Of a DNA stretch of 64,000 nucleotides, positions 1,101 through 60,643 are shown one piece after another. Under the pieces are notes generated by a model. The model was not told where the DNA came from. It was given only the letters and a program-made list of their open reading frames with translations, and ran no database searches. Made by a program: the position numbers and the translations under genes. The DNA is from a virus, in the IMG/VR virus record IMGVR_UViG_3300032159_000001. One strand, given 5' to 3'. The first letter of the stretch is position 1. The number at the start of each line of letters is the position of its first letter.

Positions 1101-2170
1101 TGTCGACGGGGAAGAGGATCTTCAAGCGTGACACCAATGGTACGATACGTACCTGGAACTATGAAGTCGACGGCGACCGGTGGCGGTCGCATAGCGGCGT
1201 GCTCGGCGGGGCCGTGGTGACGTCCGGCTGGACGACCTGCGTGCCCAAGAGCCGCGACACAGCCGAAGAGCAGGCCCTGTTCGAGGCCGAGGCCGAGATG
1301 GGGAAGAAGCTCGACAAGGACTACGCCGTCACCGAGGCCGGTGTCGACGAGCCTCGGTCCTTCGGACCGAAGGTCATGCTCGCCCACAAGTTCGAGGGGT
1401 GGCCGGGCGAGTGCTTTTCGCAGCCGAAGCTCGACGGCATTCGGTGCAAGGTGAACCGGCACGGCATGTGGAGCCGCACGGGCAAGCCGATCCTGGGCGC
1501 CCCGCACATCTTCGCCATCCTCGCCCCCGCCTTCGTCAACAAGCCGGATCTCGAGTTCGACGGCGAGCTGTACAACCACGAGCTGAAGGACGACTTCAAC
1601 AAGATCGTCTCGATGGTGAGGAAGTCGAAGCCCGAGGACGACGACATCCTCGAGGCGTCGAAGCTCGTCCAGTACCACGTCTACGACCTCGTCCTCACGG
1701 ACAAGACGTTCAGTCAGCGCGACCAGATGCTCGATCTGTTCGTGGCGCAGCTGCCGGGCAACGAGATCGTGAAGGTCCCGACCTCTCCAGTCGCGACCAT
1801 CGAGCAGCTCGACCGGGCCTACGGCACCTATCTCGAGGCCGGCTACGAGGGCCAGATCATTCGGCTCGATGGCCCCTACGAGAACAAGCGCTCGAAGCAA
1901 CTCCTGAAGCGGAAGGAGTTCGAGACCCGCGAGTTCGAGCTGATCGCCGTCGAGCCCGGGAACGGCAACTGGGCCGGGCTCGCGAAGCGGATCCGCTTCC
2001 GCCTCGACGACGGCCGGGAGTGCGGTGGTGGCATTCGTGGGACGCGCGAGCAGATGGCCGAGCTGCTGGCTCGGCCGCAGCCGAAGATCGTGACGGTCCG
2101 CTACTTCACGCCCACCCCGGACGGCATGCCGCGCTTCCCGGTCGCCATCGATTTTGACCGGCCGGACTAG
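1100..2170 (+). CDS. ATP-dependent DNA ligase
   Basis: QPKLDGIRC (KxDG), FDGELY, YHVYDL, GYEGQIIR, YENKRS; ATG overlaps the polA stop. Confidence 0.93.
   Translation: MSTGKRIFKRDTNGTIRTWNYEVDGDRWRSHSGVLGGAVVTSGWTTCVPKSRDTAEEQALFEAEAEMGKKLDKDYAVTEAGVDEPRSFGPKVMLAHKFEGWPGECFSQPKLDGIRCKVNRHGMWSRTGKPILGAPHIFAILAPAFVNKPDLEFDGELYNHELKDDFNKIVSMVRKSKPEDDDILEASKLVQYHVYDLVLTDKTFSQRDQMLDLFVAQLPGNEIVKVPTSPVATIEQLDRAYGTYLEAGYEGQIIRLDGPYENKRSKQLLKRKEFETREFELIAVEPGNGNWAGLAKRIRFRLDDGRECGGGIRGTREQMAELLARPQPKIVTVRYFTPTPDGMPRFPVAIDFDRPD
1139..1153. promoter_or_regulatory. Motif A palindrome (inside the ligase gene)
   Basis: GGTACG-ATA-CGTACC. Confidence 0.65.
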
Positions 2171-2183
2171 TACGAAACGTACC
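2169..2183. promoter_or_regulatory. Motif A (1 mismatch), upstream of nrdJ
   Basis: AGTACG-AAA-CGTACC. Confidence 0.7.
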
Positions 2184-2231
2184 AAACCGACCCCATATCG
2201 TGTGACCCTTCAGTAGCGGATCCCCCACAGA

Positions 2232-4259
2232 ATGTTGTCGAACCACACCCCCTCGGTGCGCGCGCAGTTCACGCATCGTCGCACCTACCTACGTCCCCTC
2301 AACGAGGAGGGGACTCGGTTCGAGACCGTGGACGAGGCAATGAGCCGGGTCGTCGGCCACCAGCGGTGGCTCTGGGAGCGGCAGCTCGGGCGCGACCTGA
2401 ACACCGAGGAGTCCGCCGAGCTGGACGAACTCGAAGGGCTGATGCGCTCCGCGAAGGTGTCGATGTCCGGCCGCGTGAAGTGGATGGGCGGCACCGCGCT
2501 CGTCCGGGAGCGCTCGGCCGGCGCGTTCAACTGCTCATTCTCCGTCGCCTACACCCCCGCCGACCTCGTCGATATCTTCTGGCTGCTGCTGAACGGGTGC
2601 GGTGTCGGCTTCAAGCCGGTCACCGGCCTCCTGTCCGGCTTCCCCTCGTCGATCAAGAAGATCACCGTGGTGCCGAGCACGCGTACCGGACGAGGCGGCG
2701 AGGAGAACAGCTCCGAGTCCATCGATATGGCCGCCGGCACCTGGCGCATCACCTTCGGCGACAGCGCCAAGGGCTGGGCGAAGGCGCTCGGCATGCTGTT
2801 CGGTGAGAAGCCGCGGGTCGGCGAGCTGATCCTCGACTTCTCCGAGCTGCGCCCTGGCGGCAAGCGGCTCCGCGGCTACGGCTGGATCTCGTCGGGCTGG
2901 CAACCGCTGGCGACCGCTCTGGAGCGCATCGCCGGCATTCTCCAGGAAGCCGCGCACCGACCGCTGACGAAGGGTGAGATCATCGACGTCGTCAATTTCC
3001 TCGGCACCGTCCTGTCGAGCCGCCGGTCGGCCCAGATCTGTCTCATCGAGACTGAGGCCAGCAACCTGGACGAGCTTCTCACCGACCTCGAGTGGTACAT
3101 CGAGTTCAAAACCGATCGGTGGCAGCGGGGCGAGGGGCAGCGGGAGCAGTCGAACAACTCGATCGGCTTCACTCGCAAGCCTACCGCCCCCGTAGTGAGC
3201 TATCTCCTCAAGCGGATCCTCCCGACAGGGGAACCCGGTTTCGTCAACGTCGAGCATGCCCGGCGGCGCGCGCCGGAGATGGAGGGCCTCAACCCCTGCG
3301 CGGAGATCCTCCTGCCGAACAAGGGGTTCTGCAACCTCGTGCAGGTCGTCTGGCACCGCTTCAACGGCGATCTCGCCGGGCTCCTGCGGGCTCAGTACCT
3401 CGCCGGCCGGGCGAACTACCGCCAGACCTGCGTGTCGATGCGTGACGGCGTGCTCCAGCTCCAGTGGAACGACGCCCAGAAGCTCCTGCGCCTCTGCGGC
3501 GTCTCCCCGACCGGCGCGGTGGCCTGGGACGGGATCGAGAGTCCCGAGATGCTCGAGGCCGCGCGCGATGCCGCGGTGTCGGGCGCCGACAGCATGGCGG
3601 ACGAGTTCGGCGCTCCACGCGCCCGGCGCGTCACGCAGGTTCAGCCAGCCGGCACGTCGTCCAAGGCCCTGGGCCTGGAGGGCGACGAGGTCCACGAGGG
3701 CGCGCACCTGGCCCTGAGCCGCTGGATCTTCAACTGGATCAACTTCCCATCGAACGATCCGATGCTCGGCGCCTTCCGGGCCGCCGGCTACGACATGAAG
3801 CCGAACCCGAACGACCCGACCGGCGTCATCGTCTGCTGGCCCGTCGAGTATCCTGCGTCGTCGAAGTTCACCGCTATCGACTTGGTCGAGGGTGAGCACC
3901 TCGAGGTGAACCGAGAGAGTGCCATCAGCCAGCTGGAGCGCTACCGCCTCCTGATGAAGCACTACGTCGACCACAACTGCTCGATTACGGTGTCCTTCGA
4001 CGAGGCCGAGATCCCGGCCATGGTCGACTGGTTCATGGAGCATTGGGACGAGTACGTCGGCGTGTCATTCCTCAAGCGCAACAACCCGCTCGCCACCGCG
4101 GAGGAGCTGGGCTTCAAGTACCTCCCGCAGGAGTGTGTCTCGCGCGAGCGGTACGAAGCGTACCGGCGCCGGCTCTCACCGATCGACATCTCCGAGGACA
4201 AGTCCGCCGAGCTGCTCGACCAGGGCGAGTGCGCGACCGGCGGGTGCCCGATCCGATGA
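2232..4259 (+). CDS. nrdJ: Class II (adenosylcobalamin-dependent) ribonucleotide reductase
   Basis: FNCS, NPCAEI, QPAGTSS, DHNCSITV, C-terminal CATGGCPIR redox pair; no small subunit gene nearby. Confidence 0.92.
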   Translation: MLSNHTPSVRAQFTHRRTYLRPLNEEGTRFETVDEAMSRVVGHQRWLWERQLGRDLNTEESAELDELEGLMRSAKVSMSGRVKWMGGTALVRERSAGAFNCSFSVAYTPADLVDIFWLLLNGCGVGFKPVTGLLSGFPSSIKKITVVPSTRTGRGGEENSSESIDMAAGTWRITFGDSAKGWAKALGMLFGEKPRVGELILDFSELRPGGKRLRGYGWISSGWQPLATALERIAGILQEAAHRPLTKGEIIDVVNFLGTVLSSRRSAQICLIETEASNLDELLTDLEWYIEFKTDRWQRGEGQREQSNNSIGFTRKPTAPVVSYLLKRILPTGEPGFVNVEHARRRAPEMEGLNPCAEILLPNKGFCNLVQVVWHRFNGDLAGLLRAQYLAGRANYRQTCVSMRDGVLQLQWNDAQKLLRLCGVSPTGAVAWDGIESPEMLEAARDAAVSGADSMADEFGAPRARRVTQVQPAGTSSKALGLEGDEVHEGAHLALSRWIFNWINFPSNDPMLGAFRAAGYDMKPNPNDPTGVIVCWPVEYPASSKFTAIDLVEGEHLEVNRESAISQLERYRLLMKHYVDHNCSITVSFDEAEIPAMVDWFMEHWDEYVGVSFLKRNNPLATAEELGFKYLPQECVSRERYEAYRRRLSPIDISEDKSAELLDQGECATGGCPIR

Positions 4260-4522
4260 GGACGCCGGAGATCGCCGAGGAGCTGAGGGAGCTGGCGGCG
4301 ACGCACGGGCTCCCTCGGCTCGCAGAACTCGCCGACGAGCTTCGTCGTCGACCACCGACACGTCGCGCTCCGGTCAGCTCGGAGCGGATGACGCCAGAGC
4401 TGCGAGCGCAGATCCGCAAGTTCGCCGCCAGCTTTCCCGACTTGGTCCAGTCGAAGATCGCTGAGCATTTCAACGTCAGCCAGGGGCGCGTCTCGGAGAC
4501 GCTCGCGGGGTACAGGGAATGA
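4256..4522 (+). CDS. Small protein with C-terminal HTH-like motif
   Basis: ATG overlaps the nrdJ stop; QSKIAEHFNVSQGRVSETL is HTH-like. Confidence 0.7.
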   Translation: MRTPEIAEELRELAATHGLPRLAELADELRRRPPTRRAPVSSERMTPELRAQIRKFAASFPDLVQSKIAEHFNVSQGRVSETLAGYRE

Positions 4523-5394
4523 GCTGTCAGATACTTGCGAAGGTGTTGCGGAGATCGGTGGGGCATCCCGATGCCCCGCCGATCACCAGCTTCCAGCTGC
4601 GCTACCCGCTCCAGATCCACGCCGAGCTGATGACCCACCGGGTCTTCAGCCGGAACGCGCGGTCCTCGCGGGCCGTGCCGACCGCCCGGATGCTGGAGGA
4701 GGTCCGCACGGCGCCGTTCATCCCCCGGTACTGGGGGCGGAACCAGAAGGGGATGCAGGCGGGTGAGGAGCACAACGCGCTCCTCGAGGGCTCCGGCAAC
4801 GAGCCGGACGTCACGCGGGACGAGGCTTGGCTCGAAGCTCGAGACGACGCAGTGCGGCACGCCGAGCGCTACATGCGCGCCGGCTACCACAAGCAGATCT
4901 GCAACCGGCTCCTCGCCCCGTTCCTGCACATCGACGTGGTGCTGACCACGACGAACCTCTCGAACTGGGACGCGCTCCGCGACGACCCGGCGGCCGAGCC
5001 CCACATCCGCGACCTCGCGGTCGCGATGAAGGAAGCGCTGATCGAGCCTACGCAGCTGGAACGAGGCGAGTGGCACCTTCCGTACATTTCGGACGACGAG
5101 CGTGGCCCTGATCCCTCCGGCTTCGACTGGGCCGTGTTGAGGGCCTGCTCCGTCACCCGGTGCGCCCAGGTCAGCTACGTGCCGTTCCATGAGGCCCGGC
5201 TCACTATCGCCGAGGAAGTCGCCCGGCACGACGCGCTGATCGCCGCGCGCCCGATGCATGCCAGCCCGTGCGAGCACCAGGCCACGCCCGACACCAAGCT
5301 GCCGGACGGCAGCTGGGCTCACCCCGAGCTGGCGGGGAACCTCGGGCCGGGCTGGATCCAGTACCGCAAGACCCTACCCGGAGAGAGAGCATGA
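4519..5394 (+). CDS. thyX: FAD-dependent thymidylate synthase
   Basis: HAELMTHRVFSRNARSSRAVP ThyX motif; HKQICNRLLAPF; HASPCEHQA. Confidence 0.92.
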   Translation: MSCQILAKVLRRSVGHPDAPPITSFQLRYPLQIHAELMTHRVFSRNARSSRAVPTARMLEEVRTAPFIPRYWGRNQKGMQAGEEHNALLEGSGNEPDVTRDEAWLEARDDAVRHAERYMRAGYHKQICNRLLAPFLHIDVVLTTTNLSNWDALRDDPAAEPHIRDLAVAMKEALIEPTQLERGEWHLPYISDDERGPDPSGFDWAVLRACSVTRCAQVSYVPFHEARLTIAEEVARHDALIAARPMHASPCEHQATPDTKLPDGSWAHPELAGNLGPGWIQYRKTLPGERA

Positions 5395-6033: not shown

Positions 6034-6043
6034 GCCCCGAAAA

Positions 6044-6079: not shown

Positions 6080-6094
6080 GGTACGAAACGTACC
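6080..6094. promoter_or_regulatory. Motif A, abutting the resolvase ATG
   Basis: GGTACG-AAA-CGTACC. Confidence 0.8.
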
Positions 6095-8430: not shown

Positions 8431-10351
8431 GTTCCCGCCGACCGACCACTACCCGCTCGGCCGCGCGTTCGATCGCACCTTCGACTTCTCGAAGGGCATG
8501 ACGGCGATCACCGGCCCGAACGAGAACGGCAAGACCCTCACGCTCGAGATGATCGAGTTCCTGCTGTTCGGCTCGGCCGCGCTGCGCGGCGCTGCCGCCG
8601 ACTACAAGCACCTCAAGGCCTCCGGTCTGATTACCATCCGAGGGCACCGCTACTCGATCTCCCGCACGGTCAAGAACGCGGCGCTGGCGAGTGACCACAA
8701 TGGCGAGACGCTCGCGGTCGGCACCAAGCCGGTGAACGCGCGCATCCTCCAGATCCTCGGCTATGGCCTCGACGTCTTTCGCGTCGCCAACGTCGCCAAC
8801 CAGGGCGACGCCGAGCGGCTCTCGAAGATGAAGCCGACCGAACGCAAGGCGATGGTCGACCGCCTGATCGGCGCCGACGCGATCGAAGAGATCGCCCGTT
8901 GGTGCGGCGAGCAGGCGCTCGGTGTCTCGCGCGAGATCGCCGGCCTGGAGTCGGGCCTGGGCGCTGAGCCGGTGCGCCCTGTGAAGCCGGAGGGCTACCA
9001 GCCGGCGGACGAGCTGCGCAAGGAGATCGCGAACCTGCGCACGATGCGCGAGACCATCGTGCAAGGCGAGGCCTTCCTGGCCAATGAGCCGGTCGTGCCT
9101 GTAGTCGGCCCGGCGCTCACCGAGGTCCCGCTCGCGACGTTGGAGAAGGCCGACCAGATCCTCGGGCTGCGCACCTACGACTTCGACCTTGCCGAGGCCG
9201 AGGCCGGCTACGTCGCCTACGACCAGTGGTGTAGCCGGCAGCGGTTCGTCGAGCGCTACTTCCCCCAACCCACCGTGACGCAGGATCAGGTCGACCAGCA
9301 GAACCGGCGCAACGGCCTTGCGCGTGACCGCCAGCGGCTTCGGCAAAGCCCGGAGATCGTCTGCCCTTGTGGCAAGCCTTTCACGACGGCCGACGCCGAG
9401 ATCGCTCGGATCGAGGCCGAGCTGGCCGGGATCCCGCAGCTCGAAGGCTACGCCCAGCCTGACCTCGACCGGGAGGAAAAAGCGATCCGTACCTGGAGCC
9501 TGGAGTCGGTGCGGGTCGAGTGGGAACGTCTGAAGGATGTTCCTGCTGTCCCCCGTCCGTCTCGCGAGCTGTCCGAGGCGAAGGGCGCCGTCCACGTCTC
9601 CGAGGTCGCTGCTGCGCTGAAAGAGCTGGGGCTCGCTGGCCGGAGTCGTGAGGACGTCCAGGCACTCGCCACGCAGGTTCGCCAGCGGGATGCCCTCCTG
9701 GCCGCTCAGGCCGAGGCACAGGCCCGGTTGACGACCTGGGCGGTGCAGGCCCGTGCGACGCGCGCCGCGCTCTCCCTGGCGCGCCGTGGAGCGCCTCCCG
9801 GCCGCCTCGAGGCGGCAGAGCAGCTCCTTACCGCCGTGAGCGTCTACGACACCCAGCAGGCCGCCTACGAGCGCGCCTTTACGGACTGGGCGCAGGGCCG
9901 TGATCGGCTCACCGATCTCCGGCGCGAGGAGGACAGCTGGCGCCAGGGCAAGATGGCTCTCAACGAGGTGCGCCAGGAGACCAAGACCTACCTCGCGCCT
10001 GCGCTCAGCCGGGTCGCCTCGCACATGCTCTCGCAGATGACGGGTGGTGCCCGCGGCCGGATCGCCGTGGACGAGGACTTCGAGATCCAAGTCGACGGCC
10101 AGCCGCTGAACACCCTGTCGGGATCCGGGAAGGTCTGCGCGAACCTCGCCGTCCGCCTGGGGCTCGGGCGCATTCTGACCAACGGCGTCTTCCCGGTCTT
10201 CATGGGCGACGAGATGGACGCGTCCATGGACGCCGACAGGGCAGGGCACCTCCACGACGCGCTCACTGCGCTCGACGGCAAGCTCCATCAGATCCTGGTC
10301 ATCACCCACAAGACCCCGGTCTGCCCGCGGGTCATCAAGCTGGAGAACTGA
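8402..10351 (+). CDS. Rad50/SbcC-like SMC ATPase
   Basis: Walker A GPNENGKT, coiled coil with central CPCG hook-like motif, LSGSG signature, Walker B MGDE. Confidence 0.9.
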   Translation: MIEQLSFTVRFPPTDHYPLGRAFDRTFDFSKGMTAITGPNENGKTLTLEMIEFLLFGSAALRGAAADYKHLKASGLITIRGHRYSISRTVKNAALASDHNGETLAVGTKPVNARILQILGYGLDVFRVANVANQGDAERLSKMKPTERKAMVDRLIGADAIEEIARWCGEQALGVSREIAGLESGLGAEPVRPVKPEGYQPADELRKEIANLRTMRETIVQGEAFLANEPVVPVVGPALTEVPLATLEKADQILGLRTYDFDLAEAEAGYVAYDQWCSRQRFVERYFPQPTVTQDQVDQQNRRNGLARDRQRLRQSPEIVCPCGKPFTTADAEIARIEAELAGIPQLEGYAQPDLDREEKAIRTWSLESVRVEWERLKDVPAVPRPSRELSEAKGAVHVSEVAAALKELGLAGRSREDVQALATQVRQRDALLAAQAEAQARLTTWAVQARATRAALSLARRGAPPGRLEAAEQLLTAVSVYDTQQAAYERAFTDWAQGRDRLTDLRREEDSWRQGKMALNEVRQETKTYLAPALSRVASHMLSQMTGGARGRIAVDEDFEIQVDGQPLNTLSGSGKVCANLAVRLGLGRILTNGVFPVFMGDEMDASMDADRAGHLHDALTALDGKLHQILVITHKTPVCPRVIKLEN

Positions 10352-36043: not shown

Positions 36044-36149
36044 GGAGAAATCTCCGTCTCAGGGTCTGAAAACTGTCGCTTGCAATATTGGCTCTGAGCC
36101 CCATTTTTCCAAAGCAGAGCCCCTAAAATCTATGGGAAGATCAAGATCT

Positions 36150-40667: not shown

Positions 40668-40682
40668 GGTACGGAACGTACC
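40668..40682. promoter_or_regulatory. Motif A upstream of the major capsid gene
   Basis: GGTACG-GAA-CGTACC. Confidence 0.8.
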
Positions 40683-46777: not shown

Positions 46778-46793
46778 TTTGCCCTCTCACTTA

Positions 46794-46808
46794 GGTACGT
46801 TTCGTACC
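46794..46808. promoter_or_regulatory. Motif A upstream of the primase
   Basis: GGTACG-TTT-CGTACC. Confidence 0.8.
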
Positions 46809-50970: not shown

Positions 50971-50985
50971 GGTACGAAACGGACC
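50971..50985. promoter_or_regulatory. Motif A (1 mismatch)
   Basis: GGTACG-AAA-CGGACC. Confidence 0.7.
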
Positions 50986-51776: not shown

Positions 51777-51791
51777 GGTACGATATGTACC
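51777..51791. promoter_or_regulatory. Motif A (1 mismatch) in the divergent region before parA
   Basis: GGTACG-ATA-TGTACC. Confidence 0.7.
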
Positions 51792-51916: not shown

Positions 51917-52567
51917 ATGATCGTGCTCGTGGGAAACACGAAGGGTGGGGTCGGGAAGACCACGCTTGCTGTCCAGATGGCCATCGCTCGGGCTCGTGCG
52001 GGTCGACGCGTCTGGCTGGTCGACGGCGACAGCCAGGCGACGGCGCAGGCCGCGATCCAGATCCGCGCAGAGGCCGGGCTTGAGCCCGAGATCGTGTGCT
52101 CGCTCTACCCGGACGGGAAGATCCTCCGACAACAGGTCCGCCTTCAGAAGGACAACTACGACGACGTCATTCTGGATGTGGGTGGCCGGGACACACTGGC
52201 GCTCCGCGCAGGGCTGTCGCTGGCCGACGTGGCGCTCGTGCCGTTCGCACCGGAGAGCTTCGATCTCTGGGCGATGCAGAACATGGCCGACGTCGTGGAC
52301 GAGATCGGCGCAGAACGCGACGGCCTGGTCACCTACGCGGTCCTGAACAAGGCCGAGGCCCGGTCGGCCAGCGTCGACAACGCGGATGCTGCAGAGGCCG
52401 TGCAGGAGATCCCGACCTTCACCTACCTCGACCTGCCTCTGGTGAAGCGGAAGGCCTTCTCGTCGTCCTCGGGCGCCGGCATGGGCGTCGCCGAGCAATC
52501 GCCGGTCGACCCGAAGGCGATCGCCGAGCTGGATCGTCTCGTCGCCCGCGTCTTCGAGGAGGCTTGA
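51917..52567 (+). CDS. parA: ParA partition ATPase (short, type Ib)
   Basis: KGGVGKTT, VDGDSQ, ILDVGG, VP..P..FDLWA, VLNK; no N-terminal HTH. Confidence 0.93.
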   Translation: MIVLVGNTKGGVGKTTLAVQMAIARARAGRRVWLVDGDSQATAQAAIQIRAEAGLEPEIVCSLYPDGKILRQQVRLQKDNYDDVILDVGGRDTLALRAGLSLADVALVPFAPESFDLWAMQNMADVVDEIGAERDGLVTYAVLNKAEARSASVDNADAAEAVQEIPTFTYLDLPLVKRKAFSSSSGAGMGVAEQSPVDPKAIAELDRLVARVFEEA

Positions 52568-52568: not shown

Positions 52569-52829
52569 ATGGCCATCACGCGCAAGCCCAAGCGGGAGAT
52601 GTCGGACGAGGCCTTCGAGCGGATCGCGGGTGGTGCGATCGACGGCACCACGAAGAAGCGCGAGCGCGGCAAGGGCTACGCGATGGGCCACAAGCGACAG
52701 ATCACGCACATGATCACGCCGGTACTGCTTGATCAGGTCGATGCCGAGGCCGAGCGGTGCGGGGAAGCGAGGGCGACCGTCATCAATCGCTTCATCCGCG
52801 AGGGTCTCGAGCGGAAGAAGGTCACTTGA
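52569..52829 (+). CDS. Ribbon-helix-helix partition partner (ParG-like)
   Basis: Flexible N-terminus; RQITHMITPVLLDQVDAEAERCGEARATVINRFI; directly after parA. Confidence 0.8.
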   Translation: MAITRKPKREMSDEAFERIAGGAIDGTTKKRERGKGYAMGHKRQITHMITPVLLDQVDAEAERCGEARATVINRFIREGLERKKVT

Positions 52830-53547: not shown

Positions 53548-53562
53548 CCATATCGGATATGG
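53548..53562. promoter_or_regulatory. Motif B palindrome
   Basis: CCATATC-G-GATATGG (19-bp palindrome with flanks). Confidence 0.8.
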
Positions 53563-53588
53563 CGCCAACCCGAAGCGGAGAACACAAG

Positions 53589-54314
53589 ATGGCACTCAAT
53601 AACGCCGCTGTCGCGGACATTGGTTTCGCGTCCCTCGTCGGTGCGGAGAGCATGAAGCTGCACGCCTATAGTGCATTCACTCTCCTCTTCATCATCAACC
53701 CCGGCACGGATACGAAGTTGATCCGGCGCCACCTGTCGGTGCGGGCCGCCGAGACTGGCGTCATCGCCAAGAACACATGGGAAAGCTACGTCAAGGGCGT
53801 GGAGACGGCGGCCGGCATGTTCCGCACCCATGCGCCCGACGAGGTGGCGACCATATCGGATATGGGCGCCGACGAAGCGGTCGACGCCGTGAGGCAGCTT
53901 TACGAAGGGCTGAACATTCTGTCCGGCTCCGACATCCGGGCGTGGGCAACGGCCGGCGAGTTCCTGCCCCTCGATAAGGCGGCGGCCAAGGCGGCCAAGG
54001 TCGAGGCTAGCAAGGCCAAGGCGCTGGCCAAGGGCGCCGCCGCGGCAACCCTGTTCTTCGCCAGCAACGCGGCAGACAGCGCGACCCTGCCCGACGCCGC
54101 GGCCCCGGTAAGCGCCCTCTCCGGCATCCTCGCGGCCATCGGCGCCCTCGGCCATGCCGATGCGCTGGAAGCCATGGCCGCGCTCAACGCCCACATCGCC
54201 GCCCTCGACAAGCTTGTCGCCGATGCCCCGGCGCCAACCACGGCCCCGGTGCTGGCCGACGACGCCACCGTCGCCGCCCTGTCGGCCCTGGGGCGCGTCA
54301 AGCGCGCCGCCTAG
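53589..54314 (+). CDS. Ala-rich hypothetical protein
   Basis: GGAG SD; first gene after the AT-rich region. Confidence 0.75.
   Translation: MALNNAAVADIGFASLVGAESMKLHAYSAFTLLFIINPGTDTKLIRRHLSVRAAETGVIAKNTWESYVKGVETAAGMFRTHAPDEVATISDMGADEAVDAVRQLYEGLNILSGSDIRAWATAGEFLPLDKAAAKAAKVEASKAKALAKGAAAATLFFASNAADSATLPDAAAPVSALSGILAAIGALGHADALEAMAALNAHIAALDKLVADAPAPTTAPVLADDATVAALSALGRVKRAA
53851..53865. promoter_or_regulatory. Motif B (intragenic)
   Basis: CCATATC-G-GATATGG. Confidence 0.65.
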
Positions 54315-54434
54315 GCCCCAACCCCGCCGGCGGCCTCCGTGGCCGCTGGCGCCCCCTCTCCGTGCCCGCGTGCCCGCATCTGGCCACCGGCTAGGTGCGC
54401 GCTCGTGCGTGCGCGCTCGGCGCTGCGCACCAAG

Positions 54435-54449
54435 CCATATCGAATATGG
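54435..54449. promoter_or_regulatory. Motif B
   Basis: CCATATC-G-AATATGG. Confidence 0.75.
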
Positions 54450-54486
54450 CGATCCTCTTCTCATCCATGTCCAGGAGCACGGCACC

Positions 54487-54837
54487 ATGGCTCACGCCAA
54501 TCCCGAGTTCGCGCTTGCGCGCCGCGCTCACCTCGACGGCCCGACCGCGCACCGACTTCCTGGCCCCGAGTCGCTCGCCGCGCTGCGCGCACGCATGCGC
54601 GAGATCGGCCAGCTGATCGCGATCGACTATCCCGTCGATCCCGAAGAGCGCGAGGCATATCGGCTATGGCGCGCCACGGTCCGTCAGCAACGCGCCTGCG
54701 CCGCCCGTGCCCGTCAGCTCGCAGATGCTCTCGCGGAGCCCGTAGGCGGCATGCACGCCGGCACGCGCCGCGGCGAGGTCTTCGTCCCGCCCTCGGTGCG
54801 CGGCACCGGCCGCGTCAAGCGATGGGCCGCGTCCTGA
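54487..54837 (+). CDS. Hypothetical protein
   Basis: AGGAG SD. Confidence 0.65.
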   Translation: MAHANPEFALARRAHLDGPTAHRLPGPESLAALRARMREIGQLIAIDYPVDPEEREAYRLWRATVRQQRACAARARQLADALAEPVGGMHAGTRRGEVFVPPSVRGTGRVKRWAAS

Positions 54838-54898
54838 TGGAGGATCGCCCATACGACGCAACAGGCCCACCGAGATCTCGAACCGATGAGGGTCCGAT

Positions 54899-54988
54899 AT
54901 GAAAATCTTCCTGTTTTTTGACGCCTGCCTCGCGACTTGGTGCGCGCTGATCGAGTGGATCGCGCCGGGCCTGCCGGGGGTCGGCTGA
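54899..54988 (+). CDS. Possible 29-aa hydrophobic peptide
   Basis: MKIFLFFDACLATWCALIEWIAPGLPGVG; GAGGG upstream. Confidence 0.3.
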   Translation: MKIFLFFDACLATWCALIEWIAPGLPGVG

Positions 54989-55042
54989 CGCGCGTATTTC
55001 GGCCGGATAGGTGCTGAGCGCACGCGGTCGAGACCCGGTTTT

Positions 55043-55057
55043 GGTGCGGAACGTACC
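55043..55057. promoter_or_regulatory. Motif A (1 mismatch)
   Basis: GGTGCG-GAA-CGTACC. Confidence 0.65.
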
Positions 55058-55125
55058 ACTAGTAATGGCCCGATTTATCACCATATTTCGGTGCGGAGGG
55101 CCGCTTTTTCGGCTACGGACCAAAT

Positions 55126-55169
55126 CTAGTGCTAAGTGGGGTGCTTAGCACTAGGTCGGCTAGTGCTAA
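55126..55169. repeat. Inverted repeat plus third half-site
   Basis: CTAGTGCTAAG-N7-CTTAGCACTAG, then CTAGTGCTAA. Confidence 0.8.
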
Positions 55170-55272
55170 CTGACTTGGTGGACCTCTATTAAGTCTTTCT
55201 TTTCTCTTTTCTTTTTCCCTGAAATGAAATCTAGTGGGAGAAAAAGAGCTATTGAAAGCATCACGGTCTCGA

Positions 55273-55310
55273 ACATTGCTGCAATGTTCAGGTCTACATT
55301 GCAGCAATGT
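55273..55310. promoter_or_regulatory. Motif C, tandem pair
   Basis: ACATTGC-T-GCAATGT (55273-55287) and ACATTGC-A-GCAATGT (55296-55310). Confidence 0.75.
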
Positions 55311-55439
55311 ATATGTCTCCCTAGGGGGTCAGTTGGGACTTTTATACCACTAGGCCCACACCAAGTTCTTTTCCGGGTCTAGAACCACCCCTCGAGACGA
55401 GGCGCGGAAACGACCGCGACACGCGAAAAAAGACCGCGA

Positions 55440-55454
55440 GGTACGATCCGAACC
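55440..55454. promoter_or_regulatory. Motif A (1 mismatch), abutting the HNH-like ATG
   Basis: GGTACG-ATC-CGAACC. Confidence 0.65.
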
Positions 55455-55973
55455 ATGCCCTGGACCCCGAAGACCTTCACCGAGCTACCGCCCCGCATCA
55501 GGAAGAAAATCCGTATGGAGCCGGAGAGCGTCGACGAACGCCGGGCCTGCTGGGTCTGGACGGGCTCGTTCGTCGCCCCGCGGGAGCGGCACTTCGTGAG
55601 CCGTACCCTGAAGGAGGGCTCGGTGGTGACCCAGAAGCGCGTGCCGAACCTCCACAGCACGGACCTCGGCTACCCGACCGCGGCGCACCGAGTGATCTAC
55701 GGCGAGACGTTCAACATCTCGATCCGTGACGTCCCCAAGCTGAAGCGCTGCGAGAACGACCGCTGCGTGAGCCCGTGGCATTGCATGCCGATGGGCCATA
55801 CCTGGCGGCCGGGATCGCCGGCCGCACGTTGTCTCGCGCTGCTTCGCGCCCACGACGTGAGCCCGTCCGTCAGCAAGCCCGACGCGGCGCTCGAGGCCGG
55901 GATCCCCGAGCACCAACTCACGGACCAGGTCTGGCAGGCTTACTGCATCGAGTGCGCAGCCGAGAGCGGCTGA
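55455..55973 (+). CDS. HNH/His-Me-finger-like protein with altered catalytic residues
   Basis: CWVWTG, AAHRVIY, KRCENDRCVSPWHC. Confidence 0.72.
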   Translation: MPWTPKTFTELPPRIRKKIRMEPESVDERRACWVWTGSFVAPRERHFVSRTLKEGSVVTQKRVPNLHSTDLGYPTAAHRVIYGETFNISIRDVPKLKRCENDRCVSPWHCMPMGHTWRPGSPAARCLALLRAHDVSPSVSKPDAALEAGIPEHQLTDQVWQAYCIECAAESG

Positions 55974-56079
55974 GACGCCCGCGGCCGTTCTAGGCCCCTC
56001 CCAGGCCCGGGAAACGCCTATCCGCGACCATAGCGTACCACGCACCCGGGATTTCGGTGGACAACTTCAACGATCATGT

Positions 56080-56094
56080 GGTACGAACCGTACC
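56080..56094. promoter_or_regulatory. Motif A
   Basis: GGTACG-AAC-CGTACC. Confidence 0.75.
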
Positions 56095-56233
56095 AAGATC
56101 ACGGACCGCTCCACGCTCTCTCCACAGGGTCGAAGTTCACTATTCGACCGACGAGGCGGAACACGCTACCGTGAACAGAACAGGAACAGAGCCGTTATCG
56201 CCGATGCCGGGAGTGTGTCAGGGTCGGCGGCAG

Positions 56234-56248
56234 ACATATCGGATATGG
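56234..56248. promoter_or_regulatory. Motif B
   Basis: ACATATC-G-GATATGG, just before the SD. Confidence 0.75.
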
Positions 56249-56261
56249 TGGAGGGGTTCAT

Positions 56262-56609
56262 ATGGCCGCGCCTCAGAGTACCGAGGACATCTTCGCCGGG
56301 ATGCTCGAGACGCTCGCCGAGCCAACGCGGTGGACGAAGCGTGCAGGCGCCCGCGACACCGAGGGCCAGCCCGTGCCTTCGTCCTCACACCACGCCGTCT
56401 GCTGGTGCCTGTTGGGCGCCCGCCAGCGAGAGCTGAGCAAGATCGAGGACCTCGCGCTGCTCGAGCGCCTGGACGAAGAGACCGACGAGCTGCTGCACCA
56501 AGCCTCAGGCGGCGCCTCACCCTCGGCGATCAACGACGACCCGGCCACGACGCACACCGACATCGTGGCCTTGGTCCAGCGGGCTCACCAAGCCGCGAGG
56601 AAGGCTTGA
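56262..56609 (+). CDS. Phage hypothetical protein (DUF6197-like)
   Basis: WTK.AGARD..G, AVCWCLLGA, IND..TTH; GGAGG SD. Confidence 0.7.
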   Translation: MAAPQSTEDIFAGMLETLAEPTRWTKRAGARDTEGQPVPSSSHHAVCWCLLGARQRELSKIEDLALLERLDEETDELLHQASGGASPSAINDDPATTHTDIVALVQRAHQAARKA

Positions 56610-57328
56610 CGATGCGTCCCGAAGAGCGGCCACACCTCGTGAACCATGTCTTTCAGGCGCTGTTCGTCGAGGATGTCAATGCGCCCGTCCAGCTGCTTGA
56701 TGAGGCCGTCGTTGACGAACGTCTGCAGGATCTCCGTGATCGACGGCCGCCGGATCGCCGTGCGGCTCGCCATCATTCGGTGCGTGACCGGCAGCGCGTC
56801 CGTCCCCGCGGCCGTGGCGCTGAGCAGCAGGTAGGCCGCGATCCGGCTGGGAACCGGGAGCTGCACCGAGGCCACCAGCCACTGCCAGCTCTCGGCCGCC
56901 TGAAGGTTCGCGTAGGCCTGCACGACGTGTCGGCTGGACTCGTGCTCGTCGAGGAACCTGCGCGCCGCCTGGGTGGAGCACCGCAAGGCGGCCCCGCCCA
57001 TATCGCATATGGCCCCGTAGGGCAGGGTGGCATCACCGAGCAACTGGGACACCCCGACGAGATCTCCCGATCCGAGCATGTTCAGGGTGACATTGGGCTG
57101 GGGCTTCCCGTTCGATTGCACCCCACCCGTGCTCGCGGTGATCGAGACGACGGCTTCGATCGGAGCGTAGACGAACTGTGTCCGCCGACCAGCCGAGAAC
57201 AGCTCCTGACCAGCCTTGAGGGACGCACGCTCGAAGAAGTCACCCCACTGGACGGTCTGCTTCATCAGTAGGTCGACGATAGTGTTCGACTTGCCGCCGA
57301 CCTTGAGAGTTTCACGTTGCTTGACCAT
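56585..57328 (-). CDS. Crp/Fnr family transcriptional regulator
   Basis: cNMP-binding beta-roll (GQELF, LGSGDLVG), RIAAYLL helix, HTH VTHRMMASRTAIRRPSITE, GRIDILD. Confidence 0.88.
   Translation of the reverse strand: MVKQRETLKVGGKSNTIVDLLMKQTVQWGDFFERASLKAGQELFSAGRRTQFVYAPIEAVVSITASTGGVQSNGKPQPNVTLNMLGSGDLVGVSQLLGDATLPYGAICDMGGAALRCSTQAARRFLDEHESSRHVVQAYANLQAAESWQWLVASVQLPVPSRIAAYLLLSATAAGTDALPVTHRMMASRTAIRRPSITEILQTFVNDGLIKQLDGRIDILDEQRLKDMVHEVWPLFGTHRQAFLAAW
56998..57012. promoter_or_regulatory. Motif B (inside the Crp/Fnr gene)
   Basis: CCATATC-G-CATATGG. Confidence 0.6.
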
Positions 57329-57672
57329 GACACATCATTCCCACAGGTGTTGTTCCGATCGCGACTGCAACAGCCAGAACTGCGGCAGTATCCGGTGTGA
57401 CGCGTTCAGGAACGTGGTGGCAGAGACGTGATCATTTAGGTTTTAAGTCCTATCGCACCGGCGAACCGCGATGTTCATTTCGTACCAAGAAGGTCCAACC
57501 GACCCCTCGACGAATGTCAAGAACCTCGGCCCTAAGAAAGCGCGCATCGAAGGCAAACTGGCCCACATATTCGTGTATGGCGGCCTCAACGAGCGCAGCC
57601 ACCCGACTTCGCGTCATCGGTCCGGTTCGGACCGCGACATTCTGTCCACAGCTTTTATAGGACAAAATACCT

Positions 57673-57777
57673 ATGACCGCGCAGGAAATCGCCAATCAGC
57701 TGCTTGCTGAGCACCAAGCCGCCCGTGAGGAGCGCCGCCGCGAGGCCCGCCCCTTTCGTCGTGTCCGCAACGCCTAG
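57673..57777 (+). CDS. 34-aa hypothetical protein
   Basis: AGGA SD; MTAQEIANQLLAEH. Confidence 0.45.
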   Translation: MTAQEIANQLLAEHQAAREERRREARPFRRVRNA

Positions 57778-57790
57778 TACGGATCGTACC
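57776..57790. promoter_or_regulatory. Motif A (1 mismatch), abutting an ATG
   Basis: AGTACG-GAT-CGTACC. Confidence 0.7.
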
Positions 57791-58198
57791 ATGACCCCTC
57801 TCATCGATGCCCCGCTTCCCATCGCACCTCAGCAGGTCTTCGACGCCGTCGTCGCGCATGCGGCCGGCATGACCAGCAAATCGCTCTTCGATCCTAAGAG
57901 CCGCAGCTCTGCCTGCGCCTACAGGGCACCGGACGGGAACGCCTGCTTCGTCGGGTGCCTGCTCACCGATCGCGAGGCGGCCGGCTGCGACCGGCCCTAC
58001 GATCCTCTCAGCGTCCGTGAACTCTACAGAGAGGGCCTCTTACCCGAACGCCTGAACCCGCACCGGGATCTGCTGCATAAGCTTCAGGAGGTTCACGACA
58101 GTTACGACATACCCGACTGGCCGAGCCTGCTTCGTGAGGTAGCCGACGACTATAACTTGTCGAGCACAGCGATCGACCAAGCTTTTTCGCACGCCTAA
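57791..58198 (+). CDS. Phage hypothetical protein
   Basis: QQVFDAVVAH..CAYRAPDGNACFVGCLL; ATG abuts motif A. Confidence 0.75.
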   Translation: MTPLIDAPLPIAPQQVFDAVVAHAAGMTSKSLFDPKSRSSACAYRAPDGNACFVGCLLTDREAAGCDRPYDPLSVRELYREGLLPERLNPHRDLLHKLQEVHDSYDIPDWPSLLREVADDYNLSSTAIDQAFSHA

Positions 58199-58205
58199 AG
58201 CCCGA

Positions 58206-58220
58206 GGTACGTTCCGTACC
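58206..58220. promoter_or_regulatory. Motif A, 10 bp from a motif B copy
   Basis: GGTACG-TTC-CGTACC. Confidence 0.8.
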
Positions 58221-58230
58221 ACTCACCTAA

Positions 58231-58245
58231 CCATATCGAATATGG
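58231..58245. promoter_or_regulatory. Motif B
   Basis: CCATATC-G-AATATGG, overlapping the SD. Confidence 0.75.
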
Positions 58246-58255
58246 AGGACAGATC

Positions 58256-58483
58256 ATGGCGACCTTCGTTTTTACGCAGCAGCCACGTAGGAAGAACAGC
58301 AACGAGCCGCTGACCTACACGATCACCGAGGCCACTGCCGAGCGGTCTCACGCAGGCACGCTCAAGAAGACGAAGAACCGCTGGCGCCTGAACTGGCGCG
58401 GCGTCGCCGCCGACTTCGACACCAAGATCCAGCTCCGGCGCCACTTCGCGCTGCTGGGCCACACGGTCGAGGGGCTGGCATGA
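58256..58483 (+). CDS. Hypothetical protein
   Basis: GGAGG SD overlapping motif B. Confidence 0.75.
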   Translation: MATFVFTQQPRRKNSNEPLTYTITEATAERSHAGTLKKTKNRWRLNWRGVAADFDTKIQLRRHFALLGHTVEGLA

Positions 58484-58740
58484 CGAAGTCATCGTCCCTC
58501 ACCGAGATCCAGCGCATCAACGGCGCCGGTCTCGCCCGCGGCTGGCACGCTGAGATGCTCCAGCGCGATGCAAATCAGGTCGGCCGCACCATGGCGACGA
58601 TCCACAACGAGCGTGTGGCTGGCGCCGCTGCCTTCAGCGTGCCTGCCGAGGCAATCGCGATCCGCGGCGGGCGCGTCCACTACCGCTTCCTCGACGGAAG
58701 CGAGACCAGCCACCCCTATGTGAAGCGGGAGCGTCCCTGA
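58480..58740 (+). CDS. Hypothetical protein
   Basis: Coupled start. Confidence 0.7.
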   Translation: MTKSSSLTEIQRINGAGLARGWHAEMLQRDANQVGRTMATIHNERVAGAAAFSVPAEAIAIRGGRVHYRFLDGSETSHPYVKRERP

Positions 58741-59027
58741 TGGTCACGCCCACCAAGCTCCCGCGCTGGAAGCGCATCTCGGCCGAGCGCTATCAGGAGA
58801 TGCGGGACATCCTCCCGCCGATCGACATCGCCGGTTCCGGCCGGTTCCTCGTCTCCGAGCCGATGAGCCATCGCAGGTGCCGGCGGCTCGACTTCGACTT
58901 CGTCTGCGCCGCCTACCAGGCCTTCGCCTGGATCGGGAACGAGCACTTCGAGTGCTGCGAGCCGCTCACCAGGTCCGAGCTGCGAGCCCTCGAGGTCGCT
59001 GAGATCCTGGAGAACGTCGATGCCTGA
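58740..59027 (+). CDS. Hypothetical protein
   Basis: Coupled start. Confidence 0.7.
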   Translation: MVTPTKLPRWKRISAERYQEMRDILPPIDIAGSGRFLVSEPMSHRRCRRLDFDFVCAAYQAFAWIGNEHFECCEPLTRSELRALEVAEILENVDA

Positions 59028-59427
59028 GTTCGTTCTCCAGGGTCGCGACGACCCGCGCTTCCAGGCGCTCGACAGCTTCACGCAGGCCTACATCGAGGCC
59101 GCGATCTTCACCGACGAGGAGCAGCTCGGCATCGACCAGCCCACCGCCGAGCTGCTGTCGGACCACACGTTCGCGGCCATAGTGGACGACTGCGCGCAGT
59201 TCCAGCGTTGGGCCAACCTCGATGCCGTTCCCGAGCATGCCCATGCCGGGCGCACGGGCATCCACGAGCAAGCCGGTCACGACTTCTGGATGACCCGCAA
59301 CGGGCACGGTGTCGGCTTCTGGGACGGCGACTGGATCGAGCCTCATGCCAACCGTCTCGACAACCTCTCCAAGAGGTTCGGCGAGTTCGATCTCTACCGG
59401 GGCGACGATGGCCAGATCCATCACTGA
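59020..59427 (+). CDS. Hypothetical protein
   Basis: GGAG SD; AGHDFWMTRNGHGVGFWD. Confidence 0.75.
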   Translation: MPEFVLQGRDDPRFQALDSFTQAYIEAAIFTDEEQLGIDQPTAELLSDHTFAAIVDDCAQFQRWANLDAVPEHAHAGRTGIHEQAGHDFWMTRNGHGVGFWDGDWIEPHANRLDNLSKRFGEFDLYRGDDGQIHH

Positions 59428-59656
59428 GCACGAGGCCGGCGACCGCCTGCCCCTCGTCCGCGCGCTCACCGAGATCGCGTGGGTGAACCTGCAGGCATCC
59501 TGGGACGCACCGAGCCCGCGGGTCGAGGCCATCCTCCTCACCAAGTCGCGCACCGCCGACGAGGCCGCGCGCGGCGTCCTGTTCGATCGCCTGGACCAGC
59601 TTAGCCCCGCGCACCGAGAGCTGGTCGGCGCCTGCACCAAGGAGATCACCCCATGA
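59408..59656 (+). CDS. Hypothetical protein
   Basis: Overlaps both neighbours. Confidence 0.55.
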   Translation: MARSITEHEAGDRLPLVRALTEIAWVNLQASWDAPSPRVEAILLTKSRTADEAARGVLFDRLDQLSPAHRELVGACTKEITP

Positions 59657-60087
59657 TCACGCCCAGAGAGCATGAAGCGCTCGTCACCGTCCGCGATGCC
59701 TTGGCCGCCGGCGAGTTCCGGCACAGCCGCATCACCGAGGGGCCGGACGGGCCGACATTCAACATGCGCAGCACCTGCCTCAGCGGTGACTGTGGCACGA
59801 TCGCCTGCATCGGTGGCTGGATGGCCATCACGATGCTGGGTCTGGCGAGGGAGAAGCCTGTCTCCTACGAGAACCAGACCCAGGTCTTCGACTTCGTCAC
59901 CGACTACGGCGACGGCGAACTCCTGCCTTCCAGCCCCTCCCTGAAGGTCCTCTTCTACCCGCCAGGGGCTCGCGAGGACGAAGAGTGGTGGGACTTCATC
60001 ACTCCGGCCTACGCCGTCGAGGCGATCGACAACTTCCTCCGTGACGGCGACCCGCGCTGGGGCGCGATCCGCCGTCGCATCACCTGA
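59653..60087 (+). CDS. Hypothetical protein
   Basis: AAGGAG SD; FNM..CGTIACIGGW. Confidence 0.75.
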   Translation: MITPREHEALVTVRDALAAGEFRHSRITEGPDGPTFNMRSTCLSGDCGTIACIGGWMAITMLGLAREKPVSYENQTQVFDFVTDYGDGELLPSSPSLKVLFYPPGAREDEEWWDFITPAYAVEAIDNFLRDGDPRWGAIRRRIT

Positions 60088-60119
60088 ATTCCACACCGAT
60101 AGCAGGTGGAGGCCACGTC

Positions 60120-60266
60120 GTGCCCACCCCGAAAGAGAAGGCGCTCGACGCCGCACGCTGGCGCTACCTGCGAGCCGCAGGCGGCCTGAGCCCGCGCACA
60201 GAAGCATTCACCAAGGCCCTCAAGGCCTATTGGGCCGATCTGCGGAGTATTCGCAATGATGGATGA
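60120..60266 (+). CDS. 48-aa hypothetical protein
   Basis: GGAGG SD plus GTG; not in the ORF track. Confidence 0.5.
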   Translation: MPTPKEKALDAARWRYLRAAGGLSPRTEAFTKALKAYWADLRSIRNDG

Positions 60267-60420
60267 CGAGCCCATCCGCTTCCGCAACTACTACCGCTGC
60301 GACGACTGCGACGTCGAGTGGTCCGACGACTGGTCCTGCTGCTGCGATGACGAATGCCCGTCTTGCGGCCGGGACTACACACCGACCCATAGCGAAGATC
60401 TTGAAGAGGAAACCTTCTGA
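60256..60420 (+). CDS. 54-aa acidic Cys-rich (zinc-ribbon-like) protein
   Basis: GGAG SD; CDDC..CCCDDECPSC; not in the ORF track. Confidence 0.65.
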   Translation: MMDDEPIRFRNYYRCDDCDVEWSDDWSCCCDDECPSCGRDYTPTHSEDLEEETF

Positions 60421-60578
60421 TGTTCCGCATCGAGCACCGAGATCACACCAAGCGCTGGAAGCGGTTCACCCGCGACCCTCGCTTCAACACCGAGCGTGCG
60501 GCCTGGGACTACATCGCCACCCTCGACCCGGACGGCATCGTCGACACGCAGCTGTTCCGGGTCATGCCCATCGAGTGA
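60420..60578 (+). CDS. 52-aa hypothetical protein
   Basis: GAGGA SD, TGATG coupling; not in the ORF track. Confidence 0.55.
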   Translation: MFRIEHRDHTKRWKRFTRDPRFNTERAAWDYIATLDPDGIVDTQLFRVMPIE

Positions 60579-60643
60579 CGCCTCGCCCCACGCAGCCGCC
60601 GGCTGCGCGAGATCCGTGGTTCATTTCGTACCAGGAGACCAAG

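Follow-up and report, generated by a model that had tools for sequence, protein, structure and literature searches.

A dispersed 15-bp palindrome as a candidate operator within promoter-like cassettes of a Methylobacterium phage-plasmid

Short sites that are repeated at many places in a phage or plasmid genome are known from several well-described systems. The Streptomyces phage phiC31 carries conserved inverted repeats (CIRs), perfect inverted repeats of ~17 bp that are bound by the c repressor and occur in many intergenic copies, some of them at the repressor gene itself. In phage P1, whose prophage is a plasmid with a par system, the single repressor C1 acts at ~20 scattered operators, asymmetric 17-mers that it binds as a monomer. 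The stoperators of cluster A mycobacteriophages, of which 20-30 copies across the genome serve to silence it globally in lysogens, are asymmetric and orientation-dependent, often lie in transcribed regions and block elongation, and in RK2/IncP plasmids the 13-bp palindrome OB occurs in 12 copies, through which the autoregulated ParB-family protein KorB acts at variable distances on replication, partition and transfer operons. Here we describe a 15-bp palindrome, GGTACG-N3-CGTACC (motif A), of odd length and centred on a base pair, that recurs throughout IMG/VR virus record IMGVR_UViG_3300032159_000001. The stretch under analysis (the window, 64,000 nt) is the minus strand of bases 381-64380 in this 84,125-bp record. 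With a probability of roughly 60 %, judged from sequence comparison, we consider motif A to be the operator part of a phage-private promoter cassette that would be bound by a dimeric phage regulator.

Chance expectation for motif A was taken from dinucleotide-preserving shuffles of the window. Against 0.00 perfect copies expected the window holds 10, and at no more than one mismatch it holds 17 (10 perfect and seven one-mismatch copies), where 0.07 are expected. In the whole record the perfect copies number 17 and the reversed control is absent, and we estimate ~30 copies genome-wide including variants; 28 sites were used in the placement count given below. The first-pass annotation had listed nine perfect copies (1139, 6080, 11376, 27479, 40668, 46794, 49574, 56080 and 58206), all of which were found at these coordinates, but it had overlooked a tenth at 4150-4164. 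Its seven one-mismatch copies are each exactly as given, its weaker copy at 60618 is present with two mismatches (GGTTCATTTCGTACC), and the copies at 40666 and 55041 do agree at 21 of 22 bp, as it noted. An additional palindromic two-mismatch variant, with arms GGTCCG..CGGACC, was found at 57619 (GGTCCGGTTCGGACC). The outward extension to (A)TGGTACG..CGTACCA(T) is real but partial, the leading T occurring in 16 and the trailing A in 21 of 29 copies. Three or four copies had been placed inside coding sequence; by our gene calls this is too many, only two of the 17 window copies being coding (1139 and 4150) and 15 intergenic. The claim that the motif spans functional modules held, as it heads replication, partition, virion and early gene blocks. 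The original observation was real and understated. In the literature searched on Seuss, JWF, the motif and Methylobacterium phage-plasmids, these repeats are undescribed.

Among named phages, this genome is nearest to Caulobacter phage Seuss and Achromobacter phage JWF, to which the head and primase region is 67-70 % identical; both are siphophages of ~82-85 kb with rII, polymerase, primase and a long tail module. Closer relatives, at ~73-76 % nucleotide identity, are G001, G003/G005 (one lineage in two partial records) and a contig of Methylorubrum suomiense DSM 14458. Most motif A sites have counterparts in G001, G003/G005 and G006, often at zero offset, with a flank identity of 70-85 % and with differences in the N3 and the flanks. 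Three further lineages (L105, L108 and L111) and an integrated relative, L109, also carry the motif A family. A scan of the full genome, relatives and host, as had been proposed, found the motif to be enriched genome-wide, kept in relatives and nearly absent from the host; at orthologous positions the sites are kept in at least five lineages. The copies in the window are as follows.

1139-1153: perfect, ~39 nt within a DNA-ligase-like open reading frame (ORF; 1100-2170); relatives lack a counterpart
2169-2183: one mismatch (AGTACG), 48 nt 5' of the ribonucleotide reductase start (2232), with a TTGACC box upstream
4150-4164: perfect, within the 3' end of the reductase gene, where it encodes Y-E-A-Y; 106 nt 5' of a small helix-turn-helix (HTH) gene (4256-4522)
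6080-6094: perfect, touching the ATG (6095) of a RecU-like resolvase and preceded by a terminator-like hairpin
11376-11390: perfect, 13-22 nt 5' of the start of a conserved small gene (11404/11413); kept in G001 and G006
27479-27493: perfect, between two minus-strand tail genes, 12 nt from the start at 27466; kept in G001, G005 and G006
40668-40682: perfect, 26 nt 5' of the major capsid start (40641, minus strand); kept in all lineages
46068-46082: one mismatch (one GGTCCG arm), heading a minus-strand late operon
46794-46808: perfect, touching a small ORF (ATG 46809) that precedes primase, with a TTGCCC box at 46779-46784
49574-49588: perfect, 3' of the primase gene, opening a block of early small genes
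50971-50985: one mismatch (CGGACC arm), 26 nt 5' of the start at 51012; the same one-arm variant is kept in G001
51777-51791: one mismatch, between the divergently oriented parA (51917) and an 80-aa gene on the minus strand
55043-55057: one mismatch, at the left edge of a 465-bp non-coding CTAG-rich region
55440-55454: one mismatch, touching ATG 55455 of a 172-aa gene
56080-56094: perfect, 5' of the DUF6197 gene (56262), with motif B (described below) at 56234 in between
57619-57633: palindromic, with both arms changed (GGTCCG..CGGACC); 292 nt 5' of the Crp-like gene
57776-57790: one mismatch, touching ATG 57791, with a GTGTCC box at 57761-57766; 449 nt 5' of the Crp-like gene, which is divergent
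58206-58220: perfect, followed 10 nt downstream by motif B (58231) and then by a start at 58256
60618-60632: two mismatches (weak), its end overlapping the Shine-Dalgarno sequence of the gene at 60644

In order to place the sites relative to genes, we used starts from our own codon-usage gene calls, in which some small genes are missed, inflating several site-to-start distances. Within this genome, 22 of the 28 sites are intergenic though only 10 % of the genome is (P = 3 × 10−17), and across lineages the same is true of 83 of 113 unique sites. At 46 of these 83 intergenic sites the palindrome ends 0-35 nt before a called start, and at seven the start codon abuts it. For three abutting sites (6080, -17888 and 46794), the N-terminal peptide is conserved in relatives from that very codon. 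Several sites come after terminator-like hairpins. The small ORF from 46809, which is absent from our gene calls, is conserved in G001 and G006 with its start (ATG, ATG and GTG) directly after the palindrome; it runs toward the primase gene and looks hydrophobic.

Additionally, a one-sided box was found on the gene side of the palindrome, with T at -14 (61 %), G at -13 (69 %) and C at -11 (62 %), which reads TTGYCC and ends 9 bp before the palindrome. The core of this box, TGYC at -14 to -11, is present at 26 of the 83 sites on the gene side, compared with one of 83 on the mirrored side. As such, the free-standing operator of the first-pass annotation holds as an operator-like site, but one that is locked 9 bp downstream of a -35-like box and so belongs to a promoter cassette. 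Canonical sigma-70 promoters were not enriched in either plus-strand arm (early or replication), and motif A cassettes are therefore the only recurrent promoter-like signal. At the 6080 copy, TTGCTG lies 17 bp before TACGAA in all four lineages, and a transcription start at the abutting ATG would fit this 17-bp spacing between a TTG hexamer and TACGww. Other promoter classes were set aside: a sigma-54 promoter requires GG-N10-GC, where the motif gives GG-N10-AC, and extracytoplasmic function (ECF)-type and sigma-32-type geometries were rejected on spacing, by eye. For a MerR-type operator, TTGYCC to TACCAN spans 20 bp, but the dyad is off-centre and the abutting start codons conflict with it; no MerR-family protein was found among the ~45 phage proteins scanned.

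The anatomy of the site bears on what might read it. Its symmetry reaches position -1/+16 (Y..R), giving (Y)GGTACG-wWw-CGTACC(R), and 98 % of the 83 intergenic sites have A or T at the centre, with both AAA and TTT found in gene orientation. Position 4 and its mirror, position 12, tolerate A, C or T, and the arms vary independently: only seven of the 42 sites that are variant at either position are symmetric, so that compensatory change keeping the pairing was not found in this set, and symmetric sites overall number 74 compared with 66 expected by chance. Half-sites that are read independently, around an A/T dyad, are characteristic of recognition by a dimeric protein on duplex DNA rather than of a hairpin, which supports a reading of motif A as a protein-type, dimer-symmetric site. 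A structural hairpin appears improbable, whether in RNA (a stem-loop acting as stabiliser, RNase III site or translational operator) or in DNA (an extruded hairpin acting as promoter, as in N4). Perfect copies do form a stem of 6 bp closed by a loop of 3 nt (-6 kcal/mol, z -4.1), in JWF every related palindrome has a completely paired stem and is found between successive early genes, immediately 5' of the Shine-Dalgarno sequence, and the capsid copy of a metagenomic relative (L011, ~5060-5085) keeps both arms around a 6-nt spacer, which suits a hairpin better than a dimer. Conserved one-arm variants, however, lack a stable fold (-1.3 kcal/mol, no better than shuffles), 35 of the 42 variant sites break a pair without any excess of compensated pairs, the stem sequence is invariant rather than covarying, and the loops are AAA or TTT on the same coding strand. 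An N4-type promoter was rejected on the further ground that the two giant ORFs are, by their match to Seuss, a tape measure and a tail fibre, leaving the phage with no virion RNA polymerase. No palindrome stem was called as an intrinsic terminator stem, nor is there a T run on the gene strand in the flanks; one predicted minus-strand hairpin, 55449-55431, overlaps the 55440 copy. A degenerate copy, GGTACG-GTTC-CGTGCC, was seen 5' of the capsid gene in L009 (~9940-9960).

Palindromes of the same build occur in both named relatives. JWF (L102/L103, 397-1314 and 68995-81389) has 12-13 unannotated copies of GGTTCGTWACGAACC directly before early genes; this family, GGTTCG-TWA-CGAACC, has the 6-N3-6 geometry of motif A and matches it at five of six arm positions. 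The JWF copies are followed by a conserved ttcAAGGAt..ATG module, their stems are all symmetric, their centre is TAA in gene orientation and they are limited to the early region. Seuss (L005/L006: 717, 1515, 68938, 76122 and 82486) has its own 15-bp palindrome, TTTACC-N3-GGTAAA, which contains annotated ribosome-binding sites of early genes including rIIA, a gene before which the present phage has a motif A site. The upstream box is absent in both phages.

Between the Methylobacterium lineages the motif has changed in concert. G001 and L108 (T-type) have TGTACG..CGTACA at most sites, compared with GGTACG..CGTACC (G-type) in the other lineages. Copies that lie in or overlap ORFs (4150; L007 ~8880-8894, own coordinate -8894; and 49574) read Y-[DE]-x-Y in frame (TAC GAn nCG TAC), and for the copy within the DUF7227 gene the peptide is Y-[DE]-[TL]-Y in four lineages. 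At this last copy G001 uses the neighbouring codons TTG and AGG instead of AGG and CGC, giving that lineage's T and A. This points to selection on the DNA word itself and to a change of specificity across the genome. The copy in the reductase gene (4150) decays in G006, and that in the DUF7227 gene is kept in all lineages, at a distance of exactly 301 nt from the gene of a two-helix (two-HTH) protein described below. Such a pattern would provide a model of regulon-wide co-evolution, in which one clade altered the outer base at nearly all of its sites, including by recoding a gene.

Motif A also belongs to the phage alone. Of the 22 KGTACG-N3-CGTACM sites that the 5.5-Mb genome of M. suomiense contains, 21 fall within the phage contig; the remaining one, on the chromosome, has a G/C centre. 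We further surveyed 400 sampled host-family genomes, only one of which carries the phage, for the 13-bp core GTACG-N3-CGTAC: it was absent from 277, present 1-7 times in the others and 26 times in the carrier, whilst the reversed control occurs ~5-50 times per genome in the same set. The core is thus nearly absent from host-family genomes, at 0-1 per 2-9 Mb as a rule. Avoidance of a restriction site was rejected, as the phage has 181 GTAC sites where 218 are expected, which is no unusual depletion. The least probable of the readings considered here is that motif A is the site of a host regulator coupling phage expression to host physiology; a near-identical half-site in phages of two proteobacterial host classes speaks for it, but the scarcity of the site in the carrier chromosome and the host family contradicts it, as does the outer base, at which lineages of the same genus differ in concert. 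An exact scan of IMG/VR for the 17-mer TGGTACG-N3-CGTACCA returned 69 loci, nearly all of them single chance matches outside this group, and none of the 69 has a regulator in common with this phage. The three exceptions (L034, L071 and L068) are unrelated viral contigs of 53 % GC that use the same palindrome in other systems. In L034 the 17-mer (9726 and 12093) lies between cro-like and cI-like (HTH_3 and S24) genes, inside a TTGACA/TATACT spacer; in L071 (3057/3079) and L068 (7214/7281), tandem 17-mers stand beside DnaB helicase genes in the manner of origin repeats. The motif is usable as a simple diagnostic of the present phage group.

With regard to lifestyle, G001 is 100 % identical to plasmid pMaq22A_3p of Methylobacterium aquaticum MA-22A over the 29,001 bp compared; this plasmid is circular and, at 85,702 bp, of the same length as G001. 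The M. suomiense relative is an 84,253-bp contig with a 111-bp terminal overlap, and in one isolate run the phage assembled as a single 84,097-bp contig at a depth like that of the other contigs there. A more distant relative, L109, lies within a 171-kb contig, where it immediately follows a tyrosine integrase gene (L109 1-268). The plasmid identity, the ParA ATPase encoded in the window and this integrase-adjacent relative together make the clade temperate; the present member is most likely kept as a plasmid, and from gene context some members of the clade appear to integrate instead. The genome is that of a Seuss/JWF-like siphophage carried by Methylobacterium, most likely as a plasmid, and it belongs to an undescribed family. 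The earlier suggestion of a plasmid-state prophage is consequently supported as to plasmid life, but the motif is not specific to such prophages, given the JWF family. Identical phage sequence (share of words 1.00; runs X1-X41) was recovered as well from metagenomes of plant, groundwater, bat, oil-field, marine sediment, volcano and soil origin, and from sequencing runs under several organism labels, a spread that fits a contaminant (kitome) Methylobacterium carrying the element.

A plasmid might use such repeats for its own maintenance, as dispersed centromere-like sites for ParA and its 86-aa partner, comparable to OB for KorB in RK2, or as initiator iterons. The element being a plasmid, the copy 125 nt before parA and the tandem 17-mers beside DnaB genes in unrelated phage contigs are in keeping with this. 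On the other hand, the sites are tied in position to gene starts and to the -35-like box on one side, they form no clustered array, no ParB/KorB-type protein is encoded and JWF has its palindrome without a ParA; we therefore regard a partition or replication function as even less probable than a hairpin. Neither ParA nor Crp was detected in JWF by tblastn or phmmer, and its record annotates no integrase. A test reported here contradicts each of the three readings as hairpin, partition site or host factor.

Candidates for the protein that binds motif A were drawn from Pfam and PHROG scans of ~45 phage proteins and ranked by phyletic pattern and covariation. As the palindrome family is found in JWF too, a binder is expected there, which favours a protein with two HTH domains or an Arc-like protein over a Crp-like one. 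The genes concerned are as follows.

L007, 8118-8579, minus strand of the locus: two-HTH protein of 153 aa, outside the window, with a C-terminal Xre/HTH_3 domain
56585-57328, minus strand: Crp/Fnr-family regulator, antisense to early genes, in all Methylobacterium lineages; second-choice candidate binder
36150-36389, plus strand: Arc-like ribbon-helix-helix gene, antisense in the tail module, also in JWF and Seuss; third-choice candidate binder
51917-52567 and 52569-52829, plus strand: ParA ATPase and its 86-aa partner, a partition cassette downstream of a motif A site

The two-HTH protein is the preferred, if tentative, candidate. It was found in every motif-bearing lineage, with a conserved helix 3 (SNRVxLSAMEQG); the L109 protein is 55 % identical. 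In all lineages, motif A sites lie 22 nt before the start of its operon and exactly 301 nt before its own start. It matches Seuss gp077 (36 % identity, E-value 5 × 10−15), and JWF has a weak counterpart, gp066, in which the two-HTH layout and the gene neighbour are the same. For its N-terminal HTH, the nearest atlas clusters pair HTH_3 with Sigma70_r4 at scores of 0.87-0.89, which we treat as a lead only. Within the clade whose two-HTH proteins share MNLGDF, the turn before helix 3 is WGF in two T-type lineages and FDF in the G-type L111. A search for distant loci by alignment of the two-HTH protein returned only near relatives, and the protein shows no similarity to the CI protein of L034.

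Some other protein altogether comes next in our ranking, as a rather unlikely binder, and the Crp-like protein is more doubtful still. Its gene has two to three motif A copies upstream, but Crp/Fnr-family sites are even-spaced (5-N6-5 or 5-N4-5), which the odd 15-mer motif A is not; moreover, G-type and T-type lineages do not differ in its recognition helix, RRPS[IV]TE, and the protein is not detectable in JWF or Seuss. The gene co-occurs with a second palindrome, motif B (CCATAT-N3-ATATGG), found in the window (53548-62559) at 53548, 53851, 54435, 56234, 56998, 58231 and 62545. Motif B is conserved in G001, G005, G006, L105 and L111, often 8-10 nt after motif A and before the Shine-Dalgarno sequence; like the Crp-like gene, it is absent from JWF and Seuss. 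A pairing of the Crp-like protein with motif B is plausible.

The Arc-like protein is an unlikely binder. All lineages keep it, as do JWF and Seuss, but a different palindrome, TTCCTA-N5-TAGGAA, lies directly upstream of its gene and is probably that gene's own operator. In 36030-36150 and the orthologous regions of G001, G003 and G006, conserved TTGCAATAT and CCCATTTGTCCAAAG are followed by a palindrome of this type before the Arc-like start. The Seuss counterpart is an unannotated ORF encoding two tandem ribbon-helix-helix repeats (L005 ~15174-15575, minus strand, between gp018 and gp019), which is homologous and syntenic to the gene at 36150-36389 and to JWF gp017. The 86-aa ParA partner is very unlikely to be the binder. 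Rejected outright were the 88-aa HTH protein at 4256-4522 (sigma-70 region 4-like), which occurs only in this genome and G003; a MarR protein, whose gene is absent from this genome; and a 167-aa acidic protein beside primase and a 228-aa protein, both common to JWF and Seuss, which are not like DNA binders. A MarR-family gene does precede the DUF6197 and Crp genes in three lineages (L107 8406-8822, on pMaq22A_3p, and in G005 and G006). Among the regulators that the first-pass annotation had listed, the protein at 4256 is thereby excluded, that at 36150 has its own palindrome and the Crp protein would be expected at even-spaced sites; its alternative of a gene outside the window, here the two-HTH gene, is the one that we prefer.

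In the mechanism that we propose, each cassette consists of a TTGYCC -35-like box, exactly 9 bp, the 15-17-bp palindrome and a Shine-Dalgarno sequence or start codon 0-50 nt later, and ~25-30 such cassettes head most early, replication, partition, capsid and tail transcription units; that a protein binds there, which one it is and whether it represses are inferred. A phage-encoded dimer would bind two independently recognised half-sites overlapping the -10/+1 zone and thereby bring all units under one control, most likely repression during low-copy plasmid carriage (or integration, in some relatives), with a possible added role in timing during lytic growth. The two sites in the two-HTH operon would impose negative feedback on the candidate. 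Repression is preferred because it explains most economically why a plasmid prophage should have one site in common before early, replication, partition and late units.

A number of observations weigh against this account, in addition to the 6-nt spacer of the L011 capsid copy. A 17-bp spacer from TTGYCC would put the -10 element at wCGTAC, a poor -10, and if TACGww is taken as the -10 element, then the spacer is only 11 bp at most sites. The abutting starts need leaderless mRNAs or re-initiation. The JWF gp066 similarity is weak (E-value 3 × 10−4, Pfam HTH_3 below the cut-off), and the WGF/FDF covariation, being a single evolutionary event, is no more than suggestive. Public runs holding the phage contain evenly covered DNA contigs only. 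Furthermore, JWF and Seuss were isolated as plaque formers; as JWF has palindromes in its early region only, prophage silencing is not the ancestral role, and the original use of the family was probably temporal control of early genes.

A further possibility, which we consider unlikely, is that the palindrome is a positive promoter element, at which the two-HTH protein or another phage factor binds (perhaps also contacting TTGYCC through a domain like sigma region 4) and recruits or redirects host RNA polymerase, so that mRNAs start at or just after the palindrome and have no leader where the ATG touches it. It would agree with the one-sided box fixed 9 bp upstream, the lack of canonical sigma-70 promoters in the early and replication arms, the seven conserved start codons touching the palindrome, the HTH_3 and Sigma70_r4 combination (again as a lead only) in the atlas clusters nearest to the two-HTH protein, and the retention of protein and palindrome family in the plaque formers JWF and Seuss. 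Set against it are the perfect two-fold symmetry and the centring at about -8 to -13, the classic repressor position, the presence of the site in all temporal classes, which a common off-switch suits better than a class-specific activator, and the missing box in JWF and Seuss. Less likely again is a self-contained promoter class, in which one protein would read TTGYCC with its sigma-region-4-like HTH and the palindrome as an Xre dimer, replace -35/-10 recognition and launch leaderless mRNAs. If true, the drift of arm specificity between lineages (GGTACG, TGTACG, GGTTCG and perhaps TTTACC in Seuss) would form a natural series of co-evolution between a regulator and its ~30 sites.

Returning to the operator reading, if one protein reads the ~30 sites it would be the master switch of an undescribed Methylobacterium phage-plasmid family, and Methylobacterium engineering could draw on the cassette (box, palindrome and abutting start) as a compact, orthogonal part for gene control. 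Set beside the described systems, motif A resembles the phiC31 CIRs in having many conserved intergenic copies across a temperate phage and, if the two-HTH protein is the regulator, perhaps also in having copies at the regulator's own operon; it differs from them in sequence, host and repressor family, and in being phase-locked to a box, often abutting starts and heading late genes too. With P1 it shares a plasmid-kept prophage with a partition gene and one type of site over many operons, but motif A is two-fold symmetric, and no C1, Coi or Lxc homologues were found among the proteins scanned. Mycobacteriophage stoperators are alike in the copy number of one short site, and unlike in that motif A is symmetric and promoter-adjacent; KorB OB is similarly a palindrome dispersed over plasmid operons, whereas here there is no ParB-type gene and the promoter register is fixed. 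In common with the lambdoid OR/OL operators of Xre/CI repressors, motif A is an odd-length palindrome of two half-sites, which an HTH dimer would read and which would overlap the core promoter; unlike those operators, which are clustered at one or two control regions, it is spread over ~30 units, and the two-HTH protein is without an S24 peptidase domain. The system thus differs from the known dispersed operators in its sequence, its 6-N3-6 form, its register with the box, its abutting starts and a specificity that drifts across phage genera.

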